Counted from the first letter of the stretch, positions 11,571 through 63,295 are shown. The stretch is 64,000 bases of DNA from Candidatus Yanofskybacteria bacterium (GCA_020847715.1 JADLBM010000014.1:14420-78419); one strand, 5' to 3'. Notes: generated from the sequence alone by a model not told the origin. A program made the numbers and translations.

Positions 11571-13586
11571 GTGAAGATCATCAACGTCCTGAAGGACGAT
11601 ACGCTCGCAGAGATCCTCGATCTGTTCCGGCAGGCACCTGCCGGCGAGGTCATCCTCGTCTTGCCCCGTGTCGGCAAGCTCTTTCGTACCGAAGACCACT
11701 TTGCGGCGTTCGCATCGGAGGCCTCACAGGGCGGAAAAACCGTTTCCTTGCTGACTGCGAACGCAACCACCGCGCAACTAGCGCGGAAGTTCGGATTTAC
11801 GGTTATGGCGTCGGGAAATGTGAAAAAGCCCGTTGCGGTGAAGGGAAAGAAGAAGGCGACCGCGCCCACTGCTCAGCTTGCGACCGCGCCGCTTCCCGCG
11901 GATGACGACATTCAAGACTTCGGAGACAACGCCGATCTTGGCGATGTTGTCCTCCCTTCGGATCAAACGATGGGCATTAGTCCGAGCGGCTCCGATGAAG
12001 TAGATCCCCTCCACGGCATGACGCTCCTCGATGAAGAGGGGAATCCAGTAGACGAGAACGAAGATGGGGAGCCCGACCAGCCCGACAACGACGACCTCAC
12101 CATCGGCGACGAATCGGCCGACCTGCTTGCGGCGTCCGAGGATGCGCCCACCGCAACGCTCGCTGCCGCAGTCGATGGCATCCGGCACGGCACCACTCGG
12201 AAAACCATCACACCCGCCGCTCGAGCAGAGCGTCCCATGAGGGTACCCGTTCAGCGTAGTGCCGCTCGCGATGACCTCGACTACATCGACGCCATGTGGC
12301 GCGATAAGGTTGGCCGCTCTTCGGCCCGCCCGCTCGCATCCTCACGACTTGCGGCGCGCATCCCGTCGTTCCTATCGCGCGTATTCGGAGGTGCGGCGCG
12401 TTCGCTAGGCACCGTTCCGACATCAAAGCGTGTGGCTGCTGGTATGTTAGGGGGCACCATCATTGTTCTCGCGGCTGTCGTCTATATGGTGACCGGTTCC
12501 GCACGGGTTTCCCTTGTTCCGGTTGCGCACTCGGTGGATGCTCAATACACCGTGCAGGCATCGGATGTCTTTTCGAGCATCGACGACACATTCCTGAAGA
12601 TTCCGGGGCAGCTCCTCGAGGTCAGCAAGACGCAGTCCGTTACGGTTCCTGCAACGGGTACGCGGGATGTTGCCTCGAAGGCACGGGGGAGCATCGTCAT
12701 TTCCAACGAGTACTCGTCATCCCCGCAAACGCTCATCGCTACCACCCGTTTCCGCTCCGAGGACGGCCACATCTTCCGCACGCTCCAGTCGGTCGTCGTC
12801 CCTGGAAGCACCATGGAAGCCGGAAAGCCGGTTGCGGGGACGGTTCGTGTTGAGGTTATCGCCGACAAGCCGGGTCCGGAATACAATGTTCCCGCTGGAA
12901 AGTTTGTCATTGCGGCATTCCTCGAGAAGGGCGACACCGAGAAGGCCGGCAAGCTGTACGGAACGTCGTTACAGACGATGTCTGGCGGCGCGAGCGGACC
13001 GTCCAAAGTCGTCACGCAAGCTGATTTTGACCAAGCCAAAGCGCTCGCAACGGCGGGTGTAAAAGAACAGATCAAAGCCGCGCTTGCCGCGCAGGGGAGC
13101 ACGCTCATGGTCATTCAAGCGGATGCGCCCACGTTCGCAGAGGCGCAGGCGACTGCCCAGCCGGATGACGCGGCAGAAACCGTCACCGTCACCGCATCCG
13201 CGCGACTCAAGACCATCGCATTCCGAGCGGAAGACCTCAACGAGCTCATCCGCCGATTTGCGCTGAAGAAGGATCGTCTTGTTGTCGATCCTGGAGCACT
13301 CAAGGCTGAATACACCGAGGTGCGCTTCAAGGAGGACATGGGGATTTTGAGTTTCACACTCTCGCTGACCGGCTCTGGCTATCAGCCGATTGACGTATCG
13401 GCAATTCAGAAGGATGTCGCTGGCAAGAATGGCAGTGAGATTCGTGAGTATTTCCGCCAACAGAGCGAGATTCAGTCTGCCACCATCACGCTGTCGCCAT
13501 TCTGGGTGCGAAGTGCGCCTGCAAAATCGGGCAGAATCCACGTCGATATCGTATTCCCAGCCGAAGGCGAGACATCCACGGAATAG
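11571..13586 (+). CDS. large hypothetical membrane protein (~670 aa): cytoplasmic N-domain, one TM helix, large extracytoplasmic domain
   Basis: Long ORF. The first in-frame start after the upstream stops is GTG at 11571 (VKIINVLKDD…). TM segment LGGTIIVLAAVVYMV. No recognisable catalytic motif. Confidence 0.55.
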   Translation: MKIINVLKDDTLAEILDLFRQAPAGEVILVLPRVGKLFRTEDHFAAFASEASQGGKTVSLLTANATTAQLARKFGFTVMASGNVKKPVAVKGKKKATAPTAQLATAPLPADDDIQDFGDNADLGDVVLPSDQTMGISPSGSDEVDPLHGMTLLDEEGNPVDENEDGEPDQPDNDDLTIGDESADLLAASEDAPTATLAAAVDGIRHGTTRKTITPAARAERPMRVPVQRSAARDDLDYIDAMWRDKVGRSSARPLASSRLAARIPSFLSRVFGGAARSLGTVPTSKRVAAGMLGGTIIVLAAVVYMVTGSARVSLVPVAHSVDAQYTVQASDVFSSIDDTFLKIPGQLLEVSKTQSVTVPATGTRDVASKARGSIVISNEYSSSPQTLIATTRFRSEDGHIFRTLQSVVVPGSTMEAGKPVAGTVRVEVIADKPGPEYNVPAGKFVIAAFLEKGDTEKAGKLYGTSLQTMSGGASGPSKVVTQADFDQAKALATAGVKEQIKAALAAQGSTLMVIQADAPTFAEAQATAQPDDAAETVTVTASARLKTIAFRAEDLNELIRRFALKKDRLVVDPGALKAEYTEVRFKEDMGILSFTLSLTGSGYQPIDVSAIQKDVAGKNGSEIREYFRQQSEIQSATITLSPFWVRSAPAKSGRIHVDIVFPAEGETSTE

Positions 13587-16733: not shown

Positions 16734-17075
16734 ATGATCGTACACGAGATTGACGCAACCAATCAGTCCCTCGGCCGCATGGCGAGTCGCATCGCGATGA
16801 TGCTGCGCGCCAAAGATACCCCGGGCTGGACTCCGAACATCATGCCGGAGGTTCAGGTGGTCGTACATAACCTCGATAAGGTCGTGTTCAAAGGCACGAA
16901 GGCAACCAGCACCGTCTACTACCGCCACTCGGGATACCCGGGCGGCCTCCGCGAGCGCACGCTCGAGGAGATGTGGGAGCGCAACAAGAAGGAAGTCTTG
17001 CGCCTCGCCGTTCGTGGCATGTTGCCGGAGAACCGCCAGCGCGATCAGCTGCTCAAGAACCTCATCGTCAAATAA
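16734..17075 (+). CDS. rplM: 50S ribosomal protein L13
   Basis: Canonical L13 sequence. Confidence 0.95.
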   Translation: MIVHEIDATNQSLGRMASRIAMMLRAKDTPGWTPNIMPEVQVVVHNLDKVVFKGTKATSTVYYRHSGYPGGLRERTLEEMWERNKKEVLRLAVRGMLPENRQRDQLLKNLIVK

Positions 17076-17080
17076 GCACT

Positions 17081-17623
17081 ATGGCATCCACTGACACCAC
17101 CAACCTGCAGGAACCGACGACCAATCCGACCTTTGTGGACACCGTCCGCGAGGAGGATGATATCGATCTCGGTCCCGTGACGCTCGAAGAGCTCCCCGAG
17201 GGTGCTCGCGAGAAGTACTTCGAAGCCGTCGGCCGCCGCAAGGAGGCTGTTGCCCGCGTCCGCTTGATGACCCGCAAGTCCGGCGATCCGGCGACCGAGG
17301 ATGCCGCACTCATGACGGTCAACGGCAAGGACTATGCCGCATACTTTTTGGATAAGAACCTCATTCTCCGCGTCGAGCAGCCGCTCCGCCGCCTGAAGTC
17401 GCTCCAGCGCTTCAAGGTGAGCGCAAGGGTGCAGGGTGGTGGTATCTCCGGACAGGCTGATGCGGTTCGCCACGGTATCTCCCGCACGCTCGAGCTCTTC
17501 GACGCGAACTTCCGCAAGAAGCTCAAGAAGGCAGGATTCCTCACCCGCGACTCCCGCAAGGTGGAGCGCAAGAAGCCGGGGCTCAAAAAAGCACGAAAAG
17601 GACCCCGCTGGGCGAAACGATAA
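17081..17623 (+). CDS. rpsI: 30S ribosomal protein S9 (with an N-terminal extension)
   Basis: C-terminal GGGISGQADAVRHGISRTL…KKPGLKKARKGPRWAKR is canonical S9. Start re-set to MASTDTT. Confidence 0.9.
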   Translation: MASTDTTNLQEPTTNPTFVDTVREEDDIDLGPVTLEELPEGAREKYFEAVGRRKEAVARVRLMTRKSGDPATEDAALMTVNGKDYAAYFLDKNLILRVEQPLRRLKSLQRFKVSARVQGGGISGQADAVRHGISRTLELFDANFRKKLKKAGFLTRDSRKVERKKPGLKKARKGPRWAKR

Positions 17624-17658
17624 CATTCTGGCGATCTGCATTGTTGCAGGTCCGCGAT

Positions 17659-17682
17659 GGCCGACCTTCTGGGTCGGCTTTT
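17659..17682 (+). terminator. rho-independent terminator after rpsI (gccgacc-ttct-gggtcggc-tttt)
   Basis: Hairpin plus T-run directly after the S9 stop. Confidence 0.55.
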
Positions 17683-17915
17683 CGCACGACCCGGTCGGCA
17701 TCGCTCTCCGGTCCTCCCTCACCGTATGCCCGATACGGCTCGGTTCGGTCCTCGCCTGCGCCTCGCATCTCATCCAGAATGTTACGTTTCGGAAGATGCT
17801 CACCACTCGCTCGGACCTCGTCGGGGTCGAAGCGGATTTATCGCTGATTGAGAAAAGCGCGTAGAATGGTTGTAAGCCATTCTACGGTGCGGTATAACGG
17901 TGACGGAGGTGAGGG

Positions 17916-18134
17916 ATGCCAAGCTACGGCATACAGTACCTGGCGGACTACGAGGAGCTCGGGAAGACGACGGAGCGGGTCATTTTTCAGGCAAGAGACG
18001 ACCGGCGAGCTATCCGCAGTTTCTGTCGACGTGCGGCCAACCTGCGTTGCAGACGCGACAACATCGAGGGCGAGATTTTCCTGTTTCGCCTCAATCGTCG
18101 ACACACTGACGGCACCAGAATCGCTATCGCCTAA
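17916..18134 (+). CDS. small hypothetical protein (72 aa): first cassette of the small-gene island
   Basis: Strong SD (ACGGAGGTGAGGG) 5 nt before the ATG. Followed by a terminator at 18141..18168. Confidence 0.4.
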   Translation: MPSYGIQYLADYEELGKTTERVIFQARDDRRAIRSFCRRAANLRCRRDNIEGEIFLFRLNRRHTDGTRIAIA

Positions 18135-18140
18135 CACGTT

Positions 18141-18168
18141 GGCAGAGCCCTTCCCGGGCTCTTTTTAC
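18141..18168 (+). terminator. rho-independent terminator (gagccc-ttcc-cgggctc-ttttt)
   Basis: Perfect hairpin plus T5. Confidence 0.6.
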
Positions 18169-18189
18169 TGCCATTGCCAGCCCCGCTGC

Positions 18190-18495
18190 AGAGTGATAGT
18201 ATTCTAACGCGACTGGAAAGTCTCTGGCGGGGCTGGGGGAAGACTCCAAGAACCCAAGGTCAGCCGTTGGAGTACAGGGACGAGAGGGGATTGCTTCGTA
18301 CGCGAGGCAATAGCCCAGACTGGTAGCTAAGGCAGCTAATCCGGCAGGACCGGAGCCGAAGCTCCAGAGTCGGGGACTTAGACTCCCTACGGGAGTGCAC
18401 TCCGTATAGGGAAGTCCGGACTTAGTCCTCCGCACCAACCGACTGGTACAGTCGCTTCGTACACGCCCGCGCTTCGGCTCGGGCGTCTTTTTATT
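18190..18495 (+). ncRNA. candidate structured non-coding RNA (~300 nt), class unknown. Ends in an intrinsic terminator (cgcccgcgcttcggctcgggcg + T5).
   Basis: No credible ORF on either strand. Bounded by two terminators. Many local hairpins (ggagc-cgaa-gctcc, ctccc-tac-gggag, cgactg-gta-cagtcg, attgc…gcaat). Contains GGAAAGUC and GGGAAGUCCGGAC strings. Confidence 0.35.
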
Positions 18496-18546
18496 TGCAT
18501 ATTTACTTTCTCGAAGATTAGTGGTATAAAAGCTGCGGAGGCTCCT

Positions 18547-18771
18547 ATGAGCATTTTGGGTAGATTCAGTGCATCGGCGTTGCTGTTGTTCAGTGCGGGT
18601 CTTTTCTCCGGTGTGATGCAGAGTCAATGGAGCGCCGCAGGGCGCCTCATGGTCGGCATCGTCTGTATCGGGTGCTTCGGCATGACCATCGCGAATGAGG
18701 TGATTTCCGCGATTCGCGACTCAAAGCGAGAGGGGTCAGCGGGTGCCGGGGATACCGCAGGCATCAAGTAG
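18547..18771 (+). CDS. small hypothetical membrane protein (74 aa)
   Basis: SD GCGGAGG. Two hydrophobic helices. Own promoter-like TATAAA upstream. Confidence 0.45.
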   Translation: MSILGRFSASALLLFSAGLFSGVMQSQWSAAGRLMVGIVCIGCFGMTIANEVISAIRDSKREGSAGAGDTAGIK

Positions 18772-18840
18772 GCGCAACTCGCATGCGAGTTCTGAGTCCG
18801 CCCCGCGGACTCTTTTCTTCCCAATTTCCGGAGGTGAGAA

Positions 18841-19005
18841 GTGGATCTCGTTCTGAACTGCGAGCTGTGCGGGGATTCGATGGTCGTCACGGAGCTCCTG
18901 AGGTGTCCGAACTGCGGACTAAGCGTCGCGCTCTGCGAGGATTGCATCAGCGAGCACGATTGCGTGGCCGCGCAGGAGGAGCTCGAAGCGCGCGAGTGCG
19001 AGTAG
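18841..19005 (+). CDS. small Cys-rich zinc-ribbon protein (54 aa; CELC…CPNC…CEDC)
   Basis: GTG start 6 nt after GGAGG. Two CxxC pairs. Below the ORF-track size cutoff; the overlapping listed ORF 18783..19010 is Arg-rich off-frame. Confidence 0.4.
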   Translation: MDLVLNCELCGDSMVVTELLRCPNCGLSVALCEDCISEHDCVAAQEELEARECE

Positions 19006-19021
19006 GGTGAGTCACTGTCTT

Positions 19022-19050
19022 CCCGAGCCCACGCATGTGGGCTCTTTTTC
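19022..19050 (+). terminator. terminator (gagcccac-gca-tgtgggctc + T5); family member also at 21379..21410
   Basis: Perfect hairpin plus T-run. Near-identical copy downstream of the 21108 gene. Confidence 0.6.
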
Positions 19051-19100
19051 ATTGACATTTCCTATATAATTTTGCACAATAGCCATCGGAGGATACCCAA

Positions 19101-19343
19101 ATGGAGCAGCTCCTTGCGCAATTGGCTCAGTTCATGGACCCGCAAGACCACGATCTCGACACGTTCAAGCTCGAACGACTCGTCGCGGCGCTCAAGAAGG
19201 CGCGGGAGGCGCGGCTACACGTGACGGTGGATCTCCAGCTTGTGCGGGTGGTCGTCATCAAGACGCCCGAAACGGCGGGCGCTGCGGAGGCGCTTCGGCA
19301 GGAGATGGCCGTGATGGACATGCTCGACATGCTGCGCTCCTAG
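19101..19343 (+). CDS. small hypothetical protein (80 aa, helical/acidic)
   Basis: SD CGGAGGA. Followed by a hairpin terminator at 19352..19378. Confidence 0.45.
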   Translation: MEQLLAQLAQFMDPQDHDLDTFKLERLVAALKKAREARLHVTVDLQLVRVVVIKTPETAGAAEALRQEMAVMDMLDMLRS

Positions 19344-19449
19344 CGCTACCGACCGGAGATGCTGTCTCCGGTTTTTTGTTTGAAGCTTGCTCGGGTTTTG
19401 TATTTGGCAAAGAAGGCTAAGCGTGGTACAACAACGGCGGAGGTGAGGT

Positions 19450-19884
19450 ATGGAGCGAAGCCGCGTTGTGGTGACATCTCGGTACGGGGGTCAACTCGAA
19501 TGCACCTTTGATGGATACCGTCAGGAACCCGAACGGCTGGGTCCCGATGGAGCCCCGGAGAAGGTTGTGCAGTGGCGGGGGACGGGCGTTCTCGTTGATA
19601 ATGGCAGACGCTTTCCGTTCCTATTTACCACCGAACCCGAGCATGACCACCGATTCTACGCGCTTCGTGCTGCGGTGATTGCGATCCGGGACGACCGAGG
19701 CAATCGCCGGAATCCGATGTTCGTGTTCAACTGGCTCTCGATCGAGACGGATGTCGTCGAAACCATCCGATGGATGCTGAGATCGCGAATGGAAGAAGTG
19801 CTTCCGACCATTCGCATTCCTTCGCTTTCGGCAACCGCCCTCATGATGCGCGGCCTGATCTCGACGATTGACCGCATCACATAA
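19450..19884 (+). CDS. hypothetical protein (144 aa)
   Basis: SD GGCGGAGGTGAGG before the ATG. No recognisable motif. Confidence 0.5.
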   Translation: MERSRVVVTSRYGGQLECTFDGYRQEPERLGPDGAPEKVVQWRGTGVLVDNGRRFPFLFTTEPEHDHRFYALRAAVIAIRDDRGNRRNPMFVFNWLSIETDVVETIRWMLRSRMEEVLPTIRIPSLSATALMMRGLISTIDRIT

Positions 19885-19942
19885 TCCCCATGAGGCTTGG
19901 CAGGAAGATTGCGTTGCGGTAATATTGCGGTAGAGGTGTGAG

Positions 19943-20002
19943 ATGAAGAAAGCAAAGACCCGAAAGGTGAAGACGCGACGGAAGGTTCGGATTCTGCGCT
20001 GA
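19943..20002 (+). CDS. possible 19-aa basic micro-protein (MKKAKTRKVKTRRKVRILR)
   Basis: Read by eye. SD GAGGTGTGAG before the ATG. Immediately followed by a dedicated terminator at 20016..20044. Confidence 0.25.
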   Translation: MKKAKTRKVKTRRKVRILR

Positions 20003-20015
20003 CCCAGCGCCACGA

Positions 20016-20044
20016 CCGAGGTTTACCCTCGGTCTTTTCTTTTC
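20016..20044 (+). terminator. terminator (ccgaggtttaccctcgg + tcttttcttttc); repeat family also at 21009..21035 and 22127..22156
   Basis: Hairpin plus T-run. Three near-identical copies, each ending a cassette. Confidence 0.6.
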
Positions 20045-20080
20045 GGGAGCGCACTGGTATAACCACCTCGGAGGTGTGAG

Positions 20081-20407
20081 ATGCAAATGGTTCTTTCAGA
20101 AGCCGAAAGTCGGGCAAATCTGCTTAGGAGGTTCATAAGCATTCGCCCAGGCATGCTGTTTTCCTACCAGAAAGAGGGCGACTCCTCGCTGAAGCATCGA
20201 TTCTGTATTGCCATCAAGCAGTCGGGATCGCTGAGCTGGACTGTCGTCGAGCTGACGCGCGGGAACCGTGAGAAAATCACGAAGGGCCTGCCGTGCCGGC
20301 GCACCGACCTGAGCGCCTTCTCCATGTCGTGCATGAACATACCCGACACAACCGGGTACACGCGAAAAGCGCTCGCCGAGCTCGCTGGCGCCTCTGGGCG
20401 GAAGTGA
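20081..20407 (+). CDS. hypothetical protein (108 aa)
   Basis: SD CGGAGGTGTGAG. First of a contiguous three-gene operon. Confidence 0.45.
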   Translation: MQMVLSEAESRANLLRRFISIRPGMLFSYQKEGDSSLKHRFCIAIKQSGSLSWTVVELTRGNREKITKGLPCRRTDLSAFSMSCMNIPDTTGYTRKALAELAGASGRK

Positions 20408-20410
20408 CGC

Positions 20411-20731
20411 ATGGAACGCGCATTCAGTGAGCAAGAGCGGCAGGAGGCAAAGCGGAGGCTCCTCGCATACCTGCGCGAGATGCCTGATGACGGGAAGTGC
20501 TGTGTGTCGTGTACCTGCGGCCAGCACTCCTATACGGTCGCCGACCTCATTCAGGCGGTCGAACAGGAGACGGGCGAGGGGAAGAACCTCATCAGCCTCT
20601 TCCTTGAGGAAGACTTCCTTGAGACGGATGAGCTGCCGGTTCCAGATCCGCCACGGTCATTCTTCGGCCGTCTCTGGGACTCACTCAGGAGCCTCCGCGT
20701 TCCCGTGGAGGACAAGCACATCAAGCCGTGA
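20411..20731 (+). CDS. hypothetical protein (106 aa; CCVSCTCGQH Cys cluster)
   Basis: Starts 4 nt after the previous stop. No recognisable family. Confidence 0.45.
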   Translation: MERAFSEQERQEAKRRLLAYLREMPDDGKCCVSCTCGQHSYTVADLIQAVEQETGEGKNLISLFLEEDFLETDELPVPDPPRSFFGRLWDSLRSLRVPVEDKHIKP

Positions 20732-21003
20732 GCGACCGCGCGAGCGCCGATGAGTATGCGGAGATTGTCAGGAGGGCGCGAGCGATTTTTCTCGAGGCGT
20801 ATACCCGTTCTGATGGAAGCGTGCGAACACGCCCTGTGCCGATCGCCTGCTCCGATCACGACGGCATTCTTGCCATGAACGTATTCGTGGCGACAGGTCT
20901 GTTCGAGCTTGCCGTTCAGGCAGACCAGCCTCCCGATGGTTCGTGTCGGCTTTTCCGAATCACGACCGCAGGCATCGAGTTTGCTGAGCTGACGAAGTCG
21001 TAG
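20728..21003 (+). CDS. hypothetical protein (91 aa)
   Basis: Start overlaps the previous stop by 4 nt. Terminator follows at 21009..21035. Confidence 0.45.
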   Translation: MSDRASADEYAEIVRRARAIFLEAYTRSDGSVRTRPVPIACSDHDGILAMNVFVATGLFELAVQADQPPDGSCRLFRITTAGIEFAELTKS

Positions 21004-21107
21004 TCTGACCGAGGTTTACCCTCGGTCTTTTCTTATCTGAAATAGACTCACGTGGAGCCTATTTACAAAATATATAAATGTAGTATTATAAAGACAAGGA
21101 GGTGCGC

Positions 21108-21371
21108 ATGGAGCAAGTCAGCTCAGCGGGGCAGCGTCCCACCAGCAGCATCGAAGGCGTTTCGACGAACCTGTCGCCTGAGGAATTCGCGGAGGTGATG
21201 CAGGCTGTCCGCGACGAGCGTGTCGTGTGGGACCTCTCGAAGGCGGTCTTCCTTCCTTTCGCGTGTGCAGGGGAGTTTGCCTCCGGAGAGTTCGTCCACA
21301 AGGGGCAGCGCTACCGGTTCACGGAGTCGTGGGAATCTCCGACGACCCTCATGCAGATCCGCGAGACCTAG
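21108..21371 (+). CDS. hypothetical protein (88 aa)
   Basis: SD GGAGGTGCGC before the ATG. Terminator at 21379..21410. Confidence 0.45.
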   Translation: MEQVSSAGQRPTSSIEGVSTNLSPEEFAEVMQAVRDERVVWDLSKAVFLPFACAGEFASGEFVHKGQRYRFTESWESPTTLMQIRET

Positions 21372-21446
21372 ACCGTTTCCCGAGCCCACGCTGTGGGCTC
21401 TTTTCTTTTCTGGAACATATTGCAGAATAGGTACGGAGGTGGGCAT

Positions 21447-22119
21447 GAGGATAGAAGAGTTGGTCGAGCTGCTGCGCGTTCGTGGCACCCGTGGGTTGGC
21501 GGTCGACATCGACGAAACCCTGTCGGACTCCAACCGGCACTGGTTCGACGCCATGTTCGCATTCGCCCGTCCGCACGGGAAGTCGCGCGACGACATCATG
21601 CGCGACCACAAGTTCGTCGAGGATGTGCCTGAGTGGCGCACGCCGGAGGCACGCGCGCGCATTCACGCGCTCCTACACTCCAACGAGTTCTGCACTGACA
21701 TCCCCGTTATCTCCGGCGCGCTGGAAGGGGCGTGGAGGGTCCACCTAATGGCGCGTATCGCCGCGTACATCACTGCCCGACCCGAAGCCGTCCGTCAGGG
21801 GACACTGCAGTGGCTCAAGCACCGAGGGTTTCCTGAGGCGCCCATCATCATGCGGGATGAAGATGTCGACCTGTCCGCCCACAACGACGGGAAGAACGGG
21901 TGGAAGGCGCGCATGCTTTCGGCCGCATACCCCTTCATCCTCGGTATCGTGGACGACAACGCCGGACTCACGCGAGCGCTCCGCGCTGTGAACTATGCGG
22001 GCACGCTGTTTCTGTACGGTCCCCAGTGGCAACCGGTGAACGCCAGTCCGAGCGTGATACTCTGTCCGACATGGAATGATGTCTCACAGGCGATACACCT
22101 GCGCTCCTGCGCATGGTAG
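21447..22119 (+). CDS. HAD-superfamily hydrolase, 5'(3')-deoxyribonucleotidase (NT5C)-like
   Basis: Motif I GLAVDIDETL (DxDxT) near the N-terminus. Start re-set to MRIEELV after the SD ACGGAGGTGGGC. Confidence 0.55.
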
Positions 22120-22206
22120 CTCTCGACCGAGGCTCACCCCTCGGTCTTTTCTTTTCTAAAATATGTGGTATTATGTGTCTGTTCGTTTCCAATGAAAGGG
22201 GAACCA

Positions 22207-22947
22207 ATGCTGCAAGGCATGTTGGCGGCCGCGCTCGGCGCGGCTACGGGAACGGTTCTGGCGCTCATGATGGGCGCGCTGTGGCCGCTGGGCACCCTTC
22301 TGGGTGGCTTGGTCGGCTATCTCTCGTACAACACTCGCGAGGTCGCCGAGGCGACCCGACGGGCTCTTTCGGAGGTCCCGTGGCGCGTCTTCGCTCGGCG
22401 ATGGCCTGCGCTTCTGTGGAGCGTTCTCGCATTCACCTGTATCTCGCAGACCGTTGCCGTTCTGGTCTGGCCCTTCATGCATGAGATTGGGGTGCAGACC
22501 CCCGGTGTCATCTGGCGGATCCTTGTGGTTGCGACCCTCTTCGGCCCGTTGCCCGGCTTTTTTGGCGGTGTCGCCGCCATGATTGACCCCGATCCCACGA
22601 GTGTCTGGAGCTCCACCAAGCTTTACCGCTGGATGGCCATCAACCTGAACCTCGTCGTGCTCGCGTTCTACTGGGCTCCCGTCCTGCTCTTCCGTACGGC
22701 CAAGTGGTTGTTCGGAGTGCTCCAGCTCGGCATTCTCGCGATGCGCATCTGCGCGATGATGGCTCCACACATCCTCCGCGATGTGTACAGCGAGAAGCGG
22801 CTCATCGCCGGTCTCTCGGCGTTCCAAGGGGCGGTCATCGGCTACCTCGCCCACGACTGGGTCTTTGCGGGTGTCGCCGGCCTGTCGTTCTTCGTACTGC
22901 AGGTGAGCTTCATCCACCGACGCCTCGCGCCGCAGCAGGGGTGGTGA
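22207..22947 (+). CDS. hypothetical polytopic membrane protein (~246 aa)
   Basis: Six or more hydrophobic helices. Start re-set to MLQGML. Confidence 0.5.
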   Translation: MLQGMLAAALGAATGTVLALMMGALWPLGTLLGGLVGYLSYNTREVAEATRRALSEVPWRVFARRWPALLWSVLAFTCISQTVAVLVWPFMHEIGVQTPGVIWRILVVATLFGPLPGFFGGVAAMIDPDPTSVWSSTKLYRWMAINLNLVVLAFYWAPVLLFRTAKWLFGVLQLGILAMRICAMMAPHILRDVYSEKRLIAGLSAFQGAVIGYLAHDWVFAGVAGLSFFVLQVSFIHRRLAPQQGW

Positions 22948-22948
22948 C

Positions 22949-23356
22949 ATGATTACCACCTACGCCGTCGTCGGCGCTTTCGCGCTCTGGTACGCCTACT
23001 TCGGAACCGAATACTACCTGAACGGTGGAGCCCTCGGCCGAGGCCCCAGTCTCATGCCGTTTCAGTGTTTCTGGGACGAAGTCCGCCAAAACATCCCGGG
23101 AGGGTTGACCCGCAAGGCAGCCTTCATCCGCGAGCTTGCCGCACTGAAGCCCCATGGCGCCATCGTCGGGCGTCGTCGCGTCTGGCGGTATGCCGATGTT
23201 GCGGCTCACAGCCTCTACCGCGAGTGCGCGGCCGATGTGCTTCGAGGTTCGATTGAGTTCTGGGCAACGGTCGTTGGGGTTGTGAGTGTTGGCGCCATGC
23301 TCGGCATCGGCCTCAGCCTACTGCTCAAAGACGCACTCCACCTTCTGCTGTCGTAG
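22949..23356 (+). CDS. hypothetical membrane protein (135 aa)
   Basis: Translationally coupled to the previous gene (TGAcATG). Terminator at 23365..23398. Confidence 0.5.
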   Translation: MITTYAVVGAFALWYAYFGTEYYLNGGALGRGPSLMPFQCFWDEVRQNIPGGLTRKAAFIRELAALKPHGAIVGRRRVWRYADVAAHSLYRECAADVLRGSIEFWATVVGVVSVGAMLGIGLSLLLKDALHLLLS

Positions 23357-23364
23357 TACACCAC

Positions 23365-23398
23365 ACACCTCATGCAATACGCATGAGGTGTTTTCTTT
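23365..23398 (+). terminator. terminator (cacctcatgc-aatacg-catgaggtg + ttttc)
   Basis: 10-bp stem plus T-run. Ends the small-gene island. Confidence 0.55.
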
Positions 23399-23431
23399 AC
23401 AACAACGCCCCGGTGAGGGGGCGTAGAGGGG

Positions 23432-23926
23432 CTAGGCTTTTGGTAGGTCATCATCGTCTCTGACCCGTCGAGTAGCTTCCTCAAGGTCGGGAGAATCGTC
23501 CCGTTCTTCGCTGTTGCCAAGCCTTGCTGCCATGTCGCAGACACGTTCGTCGATGGCAAGGTCGCATCCAGTAGCGGCCGCGATGGCAATTCCATCAGCA
23601 TCAGAAGTGTTCTGCGTCCATCGAGTGTTACCCTGTGCGAAGCGCACCACGGACATGGAGTCGTCGTCCCCGTTCGGAACGATGGCGACTCGCTCGACAC
23701 GGACATCGAATCGCTTGAGCAGATGAACGGTCAATCCGTGACACACAGGAAACTCGTATGAGCTTGTGTGTTTGACTTGCTGCGCCGCCGCGCGAATAAG
23801 CGCGACAACCTCTTCGCCGAAGTACATATTAAGTTGCCTCGATCCACTCACCTCATGGAGTACAATGAGCGGCTCTCCTGTTTGCGCGTGCCTTCCGATT
23901 GCAACGATCTTGAAAAGGATCTCCAT
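23432..23926 (-). CDS. bifunctional nuclease (BFN/DUF151) family protein
   Basis: IVLHEVSGSRQLNMYFGEEVVALIRAA…DGIAIAAATGCDLAIDERV matches the BFN-domain pattern. Confidence 0.7.
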   Translation of the reverse strand: MEILFKIVAIGRHAQTGEPLIVLHEVSGSRQLNMYFGEEVVALIRAAAQQVKHTSSYEFPVCHGLTVHLLKRFDVRVERVAIVPNGDDDSMSVVRFAQGNTRWTQNTSDADGIAIAAATGCDLAIDERVCDMAARLGNSEERDDSPDLEEATRRVRDDDDLPKA

Positions 23927-23981
23927 CCCACCCTCCTCTGTACGAGCCTAGGAAAGAATCCGGAACCCGTCAATGCCACGA

Positions 23982-60651: not shown

Positions 60652-60867
60652 TGGCGATGCGTTATCAAAACCCCTCATGAAGCTGGTCCAGGATCTCACA
60701 GCACTCGCCCAGAGGAGGCACTATACCCTGTAAAGCCTCCGAAATCAAGCATTAAACCCACTCCCACCCGTTTGTAAAACCTGTCTCCTCTGATAGAAAT
60801 CGCAGGTGTGCTAGCCCTGTCCATACAGGGCTTTCCTTATGGAATGGAAAGAGTACTATGTAGTGGT

Positions 60868-61122
60868 ATGTCCAACCCAGAGACAAACCGCGATGAGCGC
60901 GAAATACTAGCCAGCATCGATGCGAAGCTCACTGCGCTTTTGTCTGTAGCGCTCCGCTGTAATTCCGACGTAGTAGATAGGGTGAGCGTAGCAAGCGCAA
61001 AGAATGTTGGCTTCCTTACCTCTTGTGGGCTTTCCATTGAGGAGGTGGCAGCCGTGCTCGGAACTACCAAAGATAGCGCACGCAAGATACGTGATAACAA
61101 TAAAAAGAATGGCAAAAAGTAA
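60868..61122 (+). CDS. small HTH protein (sigma-70 region-4/LuxR-like), paralog 1
   Basis: C-terminal GLSIEEVAAVLGTTKDSARKIR plus a Lys-rich tail (…NGKK). Start re-set to MSNPETN. Confidence 0.45.
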   Translation: MSNPETNRDEREILASIDAKLTALLSVALRCNSDVVDRVSVASAKNVGFLTSCGLSIEEVAAVLGTTKDSARKIRDNNKKNGKK

Positions 61123-61306
61123 GACCGTGTCCAATCCCGAGACACTGATTGAAAAAACGCTAGAGGAAATAAAGCGCCTGCTTGTGTTGCAGCTTTCCAG
61201 CGCCAATGTCTCCAACGATGACATCGGTGCTGCGTTGGGCGTTTCTTACAAAACCGTTGAACGCATGCTCCCCAAAAAGGGTCGTGCGAAGAAGCGCGAT
61301 TAACCA
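61112..61306 (+). CDS. small HTH protein, paralog 2 (64 aa)
   Basis: NVSNDDIGAALGVSYKTVERML HTH. Its ATG is embedded in the NGKK codons of paralog 1 (ATGGCAAAAAG). Below the ORF-track cutoff in its own frame; read by eye. Confidence 0.4.
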
Positions 61307-61308
61307 TT

Positions 61309-61563
61309 ATGGCAAAGCCCCTAACACTCGAGGACATCGACATGCGCTTGCGCCAGCTGGCATTCCTGCTCGCGCAGCAGACGCTCGTGTCTTCGCTCAA
61401 AGAGGCAAAGCAGCGCGAGAAAATCGCATTTCTTAGCTGTGCAGGCCTTAGTAATGAAGACATAGCCGTGCTGCTTGGCACTACACCTCGCACTGTAACC
61501 GTCGAGTTGTCCGTACTACGGACAGCCGCCAAGAAGCCGAATGGCAAAAAGGCTAAATCCTAA
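61309..61563 (+). CDS. small HTH protein, paralog 3 (84 aa)
   Basis: GLSNEDIAVLLGTTPRTVTVELSVLR HTH plus an …NGKKAKS tail. Similar length and layout to paralog 1. Confidence 0.5.
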   Translation: MAKPLTLEDIDMRLRQLAFLLAQQTLVSSLKEAKQREKIAFLSCAGLSNEDIAVLLGTTPRTVTVELSVLRTAAKKPNGKKAKS

Positions 61564-62266
61564 TATTGTCGAGAAACTTGTAGAGCACACGGGCTACACC
61601 GAGCAAAGCGTGCGTAACGCTATCACCGCAATACGTAAAGAACACGGGTTTACGGCTACCACGCTGAATGGCGCCGCCCATGAATATGCGGGGCGGAAAG
61701 GTACTACCATTTGGCGCATGCTGGACGACGAGGATAGGGCCAGCATACCCAATATCGCCCCTGCAGTGCAGACCGTTGTGGTCAGTAAGAAAAGTGGGAA
61801 AGCTATAACCAATGTCAAGCCTAGCGTCGTTGTACTTACCTATGCAACAACCGACTCTTTTGGCCAGAAGCATGTAGAGGAAGCAAACCGTGCTTATAAC
61901 GCACAGTGCTACACCGCCGCATTCATTTTGTGTCGCAAGATTTTTGAGAATCTCATCATAAACGACCTTTTACTAAAACAGTTCCCTGATAAAAATGCCG
62001 CCAACCGAGCGCTGTACTACAACGAGGCCCAATCTCGTTTCAAGGACTTCTCCGAGATAGTAGATAATCTGTATAAGCAGCGCCTATCCTTTCCGGTGGC
62101 ATGCAGAAAACCTATCGAGCGACTACAAACCAAGCTGGGAGTGTTCATGGGCGGTGCTAATGACTATACGCATTCGTGGTATCACATCTGCGATAAAGCG
62201 GAATTCGATAAGGCTGACGTGCAACAAATAGCCGATCTGATTAGCACAATAGCTGCCGGCATATAA
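61541..62266 (+). CDS. hypothetical protein (241 aa); C-terminal half possibly DUF4145/HEPN-like
   Basis: Its start is nested in the NGKK codons of paralog 3 and its N-terminus resembles paralog 2 (MAK…NPxxxEK). The C-terminal AFILCRKIFENLI…GGANDYTHSW loosely resembles DUF4145. Confidence 0.45.
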   Translation: MAKRLNPNIVEKLVEHTGYTEQSVRNAITAIRKEHGFTATTLNGAAHEYAGRKGTTIWRMLDDEDRASIPNIAPAVQTVVVSKKSGKAITNVKPSVVVLTYATTDSFGQKHVEEANRAYNAQCYTAAFILCRKIFENLIINDLLLKQFPDKNAANRALYYNEAQSRFKDFSEIVDNLYKQRLSFPVACRKPIERLQTKLGVFMGGANDYTHSWYHICDKAEFDKADVQQIADLISTIAAGI

Positions 62267-62429
62267 GTTCAGCGTGAGCCGCACTCAGGGTGCGCTTCAA
62301 GGCACAATGCTGTTTACAATACCCTACTCGTAGGGCATAATTAGGATACAATTCATCGCCTAAACCTGCAGAGACGGCTCGGCGGGCATGGCGCAAAAGG
62401 ACTCCACGCGGCAACCCTAATATACGGAC

Positions 62430-62972
62430 ATGAAAGAAGGTGCGTACAAAGCAGCAATAAGCATCCTGGCGCTAGGCCTAGCCGCCTCAATCTATGTGGG
62501 GATTCAAGCCTCGCGTATTGAAAATCAGATCTCCCTCCCAAGCTTCGGCTATCACGACCTAAGAGAGTATGGATACGATGTTATCTCGGTAAGTGGAACG
62601 CTCGCTGGAGTGGAGGGCGGGAACATTGCCAACAGACTCAACACGAACGAGTTTACCTGCAACCGAGCAACTGGAACATGTCGCCTCGCTCAGGCCGAGA
62701 TAGGCTCTGGAGGCTTTCTATGGGTATATGCTGAGACTTTTGATATAGCATCCTGGGATTCAAACTTTGTTGTATTCAAAACGCAGCCAGGCAGCCTCGC
62801 CTGCGCCGCGTGGACATATCGCATCGACCGCATTAAAAAGGAGCTCATCGGTATCCGCGAGAAAGCAAACGGCTACGATAGCGATCGCTGTGCAGGCGTC
62901 GGACTCGAAAAATTTTCCGTCAAAATCATTGATGGGTTCGACGCCTCTGAGAAGATTCGGAAATCGAAGTAG
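62430..62972 (+). CDS. hypothetical secreted/membrane-anchored protein (180 aa)
   Basis: N-terminal hydrophobic anchor. Four Cys. No recognisable family. Confidence 0.45.
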   Translation: MKEGAYKAAISILALGLAASIYVGIQASRIENQISLPSFGYHDLREYGYDVISVSGTLAGVEGGNIANRLNTNEFTCNRATGTCRLAQAEIGSGGFLWVYAETFDIASWDSNFVVFKTQPGSLACAAWTYRIDRIKKELIGIREKANGYDSDRCAGVGLEKFSVKIIDGFDASEKIRKSK

Positions 62973-62980
62973 CGCCTCAT

Positions 62981-63003
62981 TGCCCCGACGGGGTTCCTGC
63001 AGG
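62981..63003 (-). other. tRNA-derived fragment (CCCCGACGGG+GTTCCTGC = tRNA 3' acceptor and anticodon-stem segments, T-loop deleted)
   Basis: An 11-mer and an 8-mer identical to segments of the tRNA at 63221..63259, in the same orientation, ~220 bp from the tRNA. Confidence 0.4.
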
Positions 63004-63127: not shown

Positions 63128-63227
63128 GCCAAGCAGTTGGCGCTCTCGCGTACCCTTCAAATCCCGAGGGGTTCAATATACGAAAAGACATCCACATGTA
63201 TGGATGTCTTTTCGTATTTGTAGCCCC
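63128..63227 (+). repeat. right direct repeat (R2): TTGGCGCTCTCGCGTaCCCTTCAAATCC, a 14-bp hairpin (cgaaaagacatcca/tggatgtcttttcg), then tATTTGTAGCCCC running into the tRNA 3' end
   Basis: See R1. The hairpin also serves as the tRNA's terminator when read on the minus strand. Confidence 0.55.
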
Positions 63228-63295
63228 GACGGGATTTGAACCCGTGTTCCTGCGCTGAGAACGCAATGTCCTAGACCAGGCTAGACGACAGGGCC
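63221..63295 (-). tRNA. tRNA, read as tRNA-Glu (anticodon CUC); 75 nt, no encoded CCA
   Basis: Cloverleaf folded by hand on the minus strand. Acceptor GGCCCUG/CGGGGCU (two G-U). U8, A14. D-stem GUCU/GGAC with an 11-nt D-loop containing GG. Anticodon stem UUGCG/CGCAG, loop UUCUCAG (U33, A37). 4-nt variable loop. T-arm ACGGG-UUCAAAU-CCCGU. Discriminator A. Confidence 0.6.

Follow-up and report, generated by a model that had tools for sequence, protein, structure and literature searches.

We analysed a 64,000-nt stretch of DNA from Candidatus Yanofskybacteria bacterium (GCA_020847715.1, JADLBM010000014.1:14420-78419; the window, numbered from its first letter) and found that positions 17,916-23,398 hold 13 plus-strand open reading frames (ORFs; g01 to g13, 19-246 aa) and one ORF-free unit, organized as about 11 predicted transcription units. 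On balance, we favor the reading that this locus is a flexible islet of insulated units resembling phage morons, which would be reshuffled by homologous and ectopic recombination, partly at repeated signal modules. The islet is wedged into the 6.36-kb gap between rpsI (ribosomal protein S9) and a PEGA-like gene followed by mreB. The L13 and S9 genes (16734-17075 and 17081-17623; Pfam) are directly upstream, and the rest of the window carries ordinary core functions (aminoacyl-tRNA synthetases, DnaK, PriA, Fmt, Nramp, and a CDF transporter). The original prediction had placed about 14 short genes of 19-246 aa after the ribosomal operon, which agrees with the 13 ORFs and the ORF-free unit described here.

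To describe variation, we call the window haplotype A, the same species with a second arrangement haplotype B (Logan contigs L083, L084/L086, and L085, from three sequencing runs), and the sister species C (contig L087, GCA_020852375.1; core DNA 72-81% identical to the window). Haplotype A was found in four further sequencing runs and B in three; other runs' contigs L001 and L002 were 100% identical to A, and the g03-g04-g05-g07 order of A recurred in L228-L230. Because A and B were each recovered in several runs, the islet is unlikely to be an artefact of mis-assembly.

Haplotype B had flanks 98.8% and 99.5% identical to the window, and it lacked 17845-18462 (g01 and most of the ORF-free RNA unit, whose terminator was retained), 19049-19436 (the g04 cassette), and 23400-23981 (a minus-strand gene with a nuclease domain). 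The junctions between A and B lay in or beside T-runs and Shine-Dalgarno sequences (SDs), and no target duplication and no conserved core site were found at the three indel junctions. Between A and B, the nucleotide identity of g06, g07, g09, and g10 was 99-100%, compared with 74% for g02, 70% for g05, and 82% for g12, and the intergenic modules were nearly identical. The synonymous divergence (dS) reached 1.12 in g05, 0.40 in g02, and 0.36 in g12 vs. 0.01-0.11 in core genes. In g12, a patch at 22300-22650 (residues ~32-148) was only about 55% identical, with nearly identical gene ends. By dS and by the sliding identity plot, divergence and mosaicism were thus far above those of the flanking core, as in a hot spot. 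The g12 patch also coincides with the variable middle region of its protein family, in strains whose flanks are 99% identical, and it may be an exposed, diversifying segment.

In species C, the order was S9, four unrelated genes, the RNA unit, g02, g06, g07-g08, g04, g05, g11, and g12-g13, followed at the right end by a PilT-like ATPase, the PEGA-like gene, and mreB; g01, g03, g09, g10, and the nuclease gene were missing. The g04-g05 block therefore stands after g06-g08 in C and before them in the window, and in C two near-identical hairpins (TAGTCCCGAGCCCGCC...) of the E family of terminators described below stand on either side of the moved block. The A/C homology blocks began or ended at 19021 (E hairpin edge), 19888 (g05 stop), 19933 (g06 SD), and 20729 (g08 stop). 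Over the three haplotypes, the breakpoints were 17844, 19021, 19048, 19437, 19933, 20729, and 23399, which sit at hairpin edges, T-runs, stop codons, and SDs. The g05 protein of A was 80% identical to that of species C but only 66% identical to that of B from the same species (A vs. C nonsynonymous-to-synonymous ratio, dN/dS, 0.17; A vs. B 0.22), and this pattern points to allele exchange or to an old polymorphism common to the two species. Cassette loss in B and the different order and extra genes in C bear out the recombinational assembly that the original prediction had proposed, and relatives do not all agree in gene content and gene order. As a side observation, the 353-aa PilT/T2SSE-type ATPase gene lies beside the PEGA-like gene in C (L087 12495-13556) and in the relative L004 (12364-13425); A and B do not have it, and the same spot is taken by the BFN-domain nuclease gene in A and by nothing in B.

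The site was also variable in more distant relatives, for which 80 loci were gathered via the S9 protein. A tblastn search (E<=1e-3) of the 13 islet proteins against these loci gave no match. In L007, L008, L010, and L011, S9 was followed within 0.1-0.5 kb by the PEGA-like gene (minus strand) and mreB, so the site was empty, and the prediction of a lineage-specific hypervariable locus is upheld by these results. Differing cargo was found downstream of S9 in L003, L004, L006, L009, and L012: a 1037-aa Type ISP/MmeI-like restriction-modification enzyme and a DUF2726 protein in L003 (12541-16202); a trypsin-like peptidase, a transglutaminase-like protein, a histidine phosphatase, and ORFans in L006; and a PilT-like ATPase in L004, as in species C. 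The same core-gene position thus has different content in related genomes, as expected of a hot spot. L003, the closest S9 relative, holds a 151-aa ORF between a pair of 33-nt terminators that are 91% identical (11979-12533). In L006 (6685-11358), a 56-76-nt promoter module (GGTGGGGAAGTGGGA..TTGACC-17-TAGAGT) is repeated five times, and two genes of about 200 aa are paralogous; L006 is an analogous array that reuses promoters instead of terminators. Variable cargo with reiterated modules therefore occurs downstream of rpsI in several related genomes.

Terminator-like sites (hairpin plus T-run, both strands, whole 64 kb) were concentrated in the islet. The scan gave 27 sites (18 plus, 9 minus), and 10 of them fell in the islet, which is 8.6% of the window (9 plus and 1 minus; binomial P=6e-6 on the plus strand alone, 5e-5 with both strands counted). 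The plus sites are at 18144, 18794, 19025, 19351, 20014, 21007, 21382, 22125, and 23365, and the minus site, 23423, is at the right edge. A second, separate scan found 21 sites in 15-26 kb vs. 8.4±3.2 in shuffles. The islet terminators comprise two families and three unique hairpins. The D family, GACCGAGG-loop-CCTCGGTC-TTTTC, has three copies (20014, 21007, 22125), and the E family, GAGCCC-loop-GGGCTC-TTTT, has four (18145, 18794, 19025, 21382). The near-identity that the original prediction had noticed was confirmed: the D copies at 20014 and 21007 match at 30/31 nt with the loop included and also have a common tail, the D copy at 22125 shows 87-91% identity over 33-39 nt, and for the E pair at 19020 and 21377 the figure is 96.6% over 29 nt. 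All D and E copies point in the same direction; a RAYT transposase was not seen. The sequence scanned for D and E hairpins was 64 kb of the window, 18 kb of L083, and 20 kb of L087. In all three haplotypes, the hairpins were confined to the islet, with none in the other 58 kb of the window and no copy in the flanks of L083 and L087, and the window's other 17 terminator-like hairpins were mutually dissimilar.

Comparison among haplotypes also indicated that the hairpins are under selection, as judged from compensatory stem changes. One stem pair of the g02 terminator is C-G in C, T.G in B, and T-A in A, and the g13 and g10 terminators each have a compensatory A-T pair in A vs. G-C in B. At g10, A and B differ at six sites over about 700 nt, and three of these sites are clustered inside the 19-nt hairpin; in A they give the sequence of the 19025 copy less 1 nt, and B and C retain GCCC..GCGGGC. 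This hairpin is probably the product of one event of ectopic gene conversion between terminator copies.

Promoter-like sites were found upstream of the RNA unit, g04, g06, and g10, and a second repeated module, TGGTAYAAM-N6-GGAGG(TG)-N5-6-ATG, upstream of g01, g02, g05, and g07. In these four modules (17891-17918, 18522-18549, 19424-19452, 20055-20083), the -10 box is fixed 6 nt before the SD, so the predicted mRNAs would start at or just before the SD, with 5' untranslated regions (UTRs) of about 12 nt; the same compact design was observed in species C (L087 7736, 8484, 9975). The exact GGAGGTG, which had been predicted before almost every gene, precedes 6 of the 13 ORFs, with GGAGG or GAGGTG before three more; g08, g09, and g13 are translationally coupled, and the SD of g12 is weak. 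GGAGGTG is also found before the first genes of operons outside the islet (4327, 6232, 37503, 52626), so it is the organism's canonical SD and not evidence of copying, and the idea of a reused ribosome-binding module had to be dropped. Cassette duplication was not supported: a within-islet comparison found no paralogues among the islet proteins and no DNA repeat beyond the 29-39-nt terminators and the -10/SD module. Nor is every unit a single gene with its own terminator: g07-g08-g09 and g12-g13 form operons, and g05 lacks a terminator.

From these results, we propose that each unit would consist of a promoter (often the extended -10 TGGTAYAAM 6 nt before the SD), the organism's SD in its full consensus form (GGAGGTG), one to three small ORFs or the ~280-nt RNA, and a terminator in the form of a GC-rich hairpin with a T-run. 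Because each unit would have its own start and stop signals, units could be added, lost, swapped, and re-ordered without polar effects, and the locus would tolerate rapid change. The flux would be driven by homologous recombination with diverged alleles from relatives, which would explain the mosaic divergence. Natural competence is plausible for Patescibacteria, and DNA uptake may be the source of these alleles. Ectopic recombination between short modules (D, E, and -10/SD) would also contribute. Four results suggest that the short repeated modules are some of the crossover points: the hairpin-bracketed block in C, the ends of homology at hairpins, the one probable conversion event, and the confinement of D and E to the islet. 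This is the main uncertainty of the proposal.

Several points weigh against this interpretation. Only three haplotypes were available (n=3), all of them from metagenome-assembled genomes (MAGs) or short-read contigs, and the statement that D and E are confined to the islet covers 58 kb of flank and not the whole genome. As a design, the D hairpin is generic: at least 120 unrelated metagenome contigs carry a single copy each, as do 16 viral contigs, so part of the terminator similarity could be convergence; the contigs with the D pattern have varied loops, 32-71% GC, and no islet homologues. Some recombination boundaries lie inside genes (g05 ~19800; g12 22300 and 22650), so the modules are not the sole crossover points. 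Islet genes common to A and C have dS similar to core genes, which implies long vertical inheritance, and no recent acquisition, for much of the islet. The promoters and terminators are predictions from E. coli-type consensus, which may not be that of this phylum. Function is unassigned for 10 of the 13 proteins.

The islet was also compared with known classes of gene array. Phage morons are autonomous promoter-gene-terminator units between conserved prophage genes (the Hendrix/Juhala concept). The islet units resemble them in having their own promoter-like site, strong SD, and terminator (predicted signals, from consensus scans and intergenic reading), in presence/absence among close relatives, in their place between conserved neighbours, and in small accessory cargo, so the suggested likeness to phage morons stands for the build of the units. 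It does not extend to the surroundings: the islet occupies a chromosomal core-gene junction flanked by rpsI and the PEGA-like gene/mreB, not a place between phage genes; about 11 units stand in tandem, many as old as the species split; and composition equals that of the flanks (GC 0.57-0.62 inside vs. 0.56-0.64 outside; GC skew mildly positive at 18-21.5 kb only). PHROGs gave no match for 9 of the 10 proteins tested, only the putative haloacid dehalogenase (HAD) protein g11 being matched; blastn of the left part of the islet against 50,697 phage records gave no match, nor did RNA-motif patterns in viral contigs. No integrase, att repeat, or tRNA was found at the islet borders, and no recombinase in the Pfam lists of L083/L086 (6 kb upstream to 8.5 kb downstream) or among 20 further window ORFs tested.

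Integron arrays are also tandem and co-oriented, with small genes of no known function, a palindrome after each gene, and variable content and order. The integron attC is a 57-141-bp imperfect palindrome with R''/L''/L'/R' boxes, and the cassettes are without promoters. The islet has no IntI, attI, or attC-like site; its repeats, near-perfect hairpins of 17-22 nt carrying a T-run, are terminators in form, and its cassettes have predicted promoters of their own instead of Pc. The original prediction, which had likened the locus to a super-integron without attC sites or an integrase, was therefore right about what is missing, but the array is not an integron. It is not a prophage either, because it has no phage genes and no composition shift. 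REP/BIME elements (repetitive extragenic palindromes and their mosaics), Neisseria DNA uptake sequences (DUS), and Haemophilus uptake signal sequences (USS) occur in hundreds of copies genome-wide, and pairs of uptake sequences double as terminators. The islet hairpins are likewise short GC-rich palindromes 3' of genes, recurring with a conserved stem and with terminator and recombination potential, but they are confined to a 6-kb locus within 64 kb, and the 58 kb of flank give no support to REP-like repeats spread over the genome.

Three further mechanisms were considered and rejected. Integrative mobile elements at dif (dif/IMEX), an idea that arose from a turn of the GC skew around 22-26 kb and from AT-rich DNA at 21060-21095, were rejected since the dif core pattern had no match with <=3 mismatches. 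A diversity-generating retroelement was rejected since there is no template repeat in the window and the patches, about 55-70% identical over ~350 nt, are too divergent; no reverse transcriptase was found among the ORFs tested. An att-like duplication of the 37-nt element at the left border was rejected since this element is single-copy in the window.

Flexible islets and hot spots share with our locus a fixed core-gene position, different gene sets, mosaic divergence, and no need of a mobility gene; one example is Listeria lmo0443-lmo0449, described as a hypervariable hot spot (PMC5541211). Our islet differs from known flexible islets in its size of only 6 kb, its monocistronic units or tiny operons, its reused terminator and -10/SD modules, and its place in a reduced genome of the candidate phyla radiation (CPR), with no tRNA or integrase at the border. 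A paper on curation of CPR MAGs mentions hypervariable islands in general terms (PMC7739484), and our literature search found no description of this architecture.

How much the terminators take part in the reshuffling is where the alternatives lie closest. The same islet could have passive terminators, reflecting a favored design with occasional local copying, and change by ordinary homologous recombination through similar coding or flanking DNA, or by illegitimate recombination, in which the modules would play no special part. The D stem with its T-run in unrelated metagenome and viral contigs, CCGAG/CTCGG stems in terminators of other relatives, the several divergence boundaries inside ORFs, and the lack of a target duplication or core site at the A/B indels all fit this explanation. 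It accounts poorly for the loop and tail shared by the 20014 and 21007 copies, for the g10 hairpin changes clustered toward the 19025 copy, for the E-bracketed block of C and the A/C homology blocks ending at hairpin edges, and for the absence of D and E from the 58 kb outside the islet, and we regard it as possible though doubtful. At the other extreme, the hairpins, perhaps with the -10/SD modules, would be the recombination sites of an integrase-free cassette system, and the region downstream of rpsI would be a "dock" across several genera of Yanofskybacteria/Paceibacteria; blocks would excise and re-insert, or swap after DNA uptake, via short-homology recombination at hairpins. If this were true, an integron-like function would be built from transcription signals, but we consider it rather unlikely.

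The remaining alternatives change the nature of the locus itself. It is improbable that the islet is a co-regulated module of small envelope or ribosome-associated factors with high expression beside the ribosomal operon, in which the common -10/SD and terminator modules serve uniform expression and strain variation is incidental. A consensus SD at a fixed distance from the -10 in four to seven units, about nine units conserved between A and C with dS like core and dN/dS <0.5, the position between the rpsI operon and an mreB/glycosyltransferase cluster, and the conserved basic micropeptide, which could be ribosome-associated (by inference only), are in line with such a module; but three units are dispensable within the species, g01, g03, g09, and g10 are missing from C, the order is not conserved, the same-site cargo of relatives is unrelated (restriction-modification enzyme, peptidase, phosphatase, PilT-like ATPase), and the islet proteins have no family in common. 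A decayed prophage or integrative element whose units are true phage morons is very improbable: the promoter-gene-terminator build and the presence/absence fit the moron definition, the HAD protein matches PHROG 415, and HAD nucleotidases and nucleases are common phage cargo, but the PHROG and phage-record searches were otherwise blank, RNA-motif patterns were unmatched in viral contigs, the borders have no integrase, att repeat, or tRNA, GC equals that of the flanks, and the genes common to A and C are as old as the species split. There is next to no chance that this is an ordinary conserved cluster whose terminators are alike through genome-wide REP-like palindromes. The existence of generic hairpin designs, the D design among them, speaks for this alternative, which the original prediction itself had raised; but D and E occur only in the islet within the sequence scanned, the window's 17 other terminator-like hairpins are unrelated in sequence, the genes are absent from all the relatives outside the genus that were compared, and the strain comparison, with content and order differing among A, B, and C, already contradicts it.

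The units are described below from left to right, all on the plus strand unless stated. The rpsI operon ends with an intrinsic terminator at 17660-17685 (GCCGACC-TTCTG-GGTCGGC-TTTTCGC, read from the sequence), and the islet starts downstream of it. As a side observation, the ~180 nt 3' of the S9 stop (17624-17800), which hold this terminator and more hairpins, fold unusually well (z -4.3) and are 100% identical in B; they could be a 3'-UTR element or a small RNA. A 37-nt conserved element, CGCTCGGACCTCGTCGGGGTCGAAGCGGATTTATCGC (17808-17844), forms the left edge of the variable region; it has 0-1 mismatch across A, B, and C, the intergenic DNA around it is unalignable in C, and the A/B breakpoint (17844/17845) is at its end.

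The g01 cassette (17891-18167) has a -10 TATAAC (17893), SD GGAGGTG (17905), a 72-aa Arg-rich ORF (17916-18134) present in haplotype A only, not in B or C, and an E-type terminator (18144-18162). It is followed by the RNA unit (18174-18492), with promoter TTGCCA-17-TAGTAT (18174-18202) and terminator 18464-18486. The g02 cassette (18522-18816; ORF 18547-18771) has a TGGTATAAA -10, SD GGAGG, and an E-type terminator (18794-18812), and encodes a 74-aa membrane protein with amino acid identity of 54% to B and 44% to C. The g03 cassette (18829-19048; ORF 18841-19005), in which no -10 of its own was seen, has SD GGAGGTG, a GTG start, and an E-type terminator (19025-19044); its 54-aa Cys-rich, zinc-ribbon-like product gave a weak Zn_ribbon_DUF2089 match below cut-off, and the gene has dN/dS 0.34 vs. 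B and is not in C. The g04 cassette (19049-19436) comprises promoter TTGACA-17-CACAAT, an 80-aa ORF (19101-19343), and terminator 19351-19373, followed by the g05 promoter. Missing from B, this segment stands beside g05 in C (70.5% amino acid identity, dN/dS 0.44), and its arrangement was confirmed in two more sequencing runs. The g05 unit (19437-19884; ORF 19450-19884), with SD GGAGGTG and a 144-aa ORF, is the islet's most divergent allele.

The g06 cassette (19897-20044) has promoter TTGGCA-17-TAATAT, SD GAGGTG, and a D-type terminator (20014-20034), and its ORF (19943-20002), unannotated in the MAG, encodes a 19-aa basic micropeptide, MKKAKTRKVKTRRKVRILR, which is identical in B. The C homologue has 20 aa, MRRKARVWKTKDRRKVRVLR (L087 8782-8844), with its own SD and D-type terminator. 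A sequence search of PDB gave no meaningful match for it; binding to the ribosome or to nucleic acid would be our guess. The g07-g08-g09 cassette (20055-21037) has a TGGTATAAC -10, SD GGAGGTG, three coupled ORFs of 108, 106, and 91 aa (20081-20407, 20411-20731, 20728-21003), and a D-type terminator (21007-21027), and it is flanked by the near-identical 31-nt D repeats (20014, 21007). In C, g09 is missing and an E hairpin is directly 3' of g08. The g10 cassette (21062-21409) has promoter TTTACA-16-TATTAT, SD GGAGGTG, an 87-aa ORF (21108-21371), and an E-type terminator (21382-21400). The g11 cassette (21435-22156) has SD GGAGGTG, a 224-aa ORF (21445-22119), and a D-type terminator (22125-22146), and the g12-g13 cassette (22166-23398) has a TGGTATTAT -10, membrane proteins of 246 aa (22207-22947) and 135 aa (22949-23356), and terminator 23365-23391. 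Beyond it on the minus strand, the BFN-domain cassette (23400-23981; ORF 23432-23926, own terminator 23423-23406) encodes a 164-aa protein with a bifunctional-nuclease domain (Pfam BFN_dom 1.9e-8); absent from B and C, it was seen again in SRR11294023.

The unit at 18174-18492 is a candidate structured RNA. The predicted RNA (~18208-18492, about 280 nt) had a fold z of -3.3 and was about 86% identical to L087 8170-8456 (unit L087 8130-8456) with three 1-nt indels, and the promoter position is kept in C. Between A and C, 81/81 predicted pairs were kept and 3 were compensatory, in a comparison of two sequences with a weak shuffle control (72/500). Rfam, searched at gathering and at E<=10 in both species, gave no family for it.

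For the coding units, dN/dS was 0.04-0.73 between A and B and 0.15-0.48 between A and C, vs. 0.01-0.11 in core genes, and these values indicate purifying but relaxed selection on most islet ORFs. g07 and g08 had 0.15-0.20 vs. C, whereas g01, g09, and g10 are candidate genes on their signals only. Pfam, PHROGs, PADLOC, and NCBIfam returned nothing significant apart from the weak g11 match and the g03 zinc-ribbon hint, with no family match for g01, and a match of g08 to LmuB (0.0012) was judged chance. g11 matched Pfam NT5C at 7.4e-5, just below the cut-off, and PHROG 415 at 3e-7; its DxDxT motif (VDIDET) and GIVDDN are intact, NT5C is on record for its C orthologue, and its dN/dS was 0.04 vs. 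B and 0.19 vs. C. These features identify the predicted product as an NT5C-like HAD-superfamily phosphatase. g12 belongs to a family of uncharacterised ~250-aa membrane proteins with 194 representatives, one relative of which lies after EF-P in another CPR contig; a g12 paralogue after EF-P was looked for in this window and not found. PDB sequence searches with g11 and the g12 family profile gave nothing meaningful. The 90%-identity clusters of the islet proteins have 1-3 members each, g05 and g07 have no relatives beyond haplotypes A, B, and C, and the g05 family has only 3 members among 5.8e9 clusters; the AlphaFold model of g05, from a 3-sequence alignment, had a predicted local distance difference test (pLDDT) score of 48 and was unusable. 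Our best guess for cargo roles is nucleotide scavenging and envelope, host, or phage interactions.

Elsewhere in the window, 60800-63000 had a GC content of ~0.50-0.51 vs. ~0.59 elsewhere. Three ORFs there (60837-61547 minus, 61541-62266, 62430-62972) had no Pfam match, and a tRNA-Glu gene (63220-63295) adjoins; possibly, a second small insert, foreign or variable, lies here.

That islets can be hypervariable is well established, and the novelty here is modest, but the architecture is unusual and comes from a little-studied phylum. To our knowledge, there is no earlier description of a reduced CPR genome in which insulated mini-units of moron type stand in tandem at a core-gene junction. The islet offers a small locus for studying the exchange of accessory genes without mobility enzymes in ultra-small, probably competent bacteria. 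Further new elements are a ~280-nt RNA candidate and a basic micropeptide of 19-20 aa, both conserved, and the TGGTAYAAM-N6-GGAGGTG module and the D/E hairpins are possible genetic parts for Patescibacteria, where such parts are scarce. The fast-evolving, strain-specific small and membrane proteins are candidates for interaction with hosts or phages.

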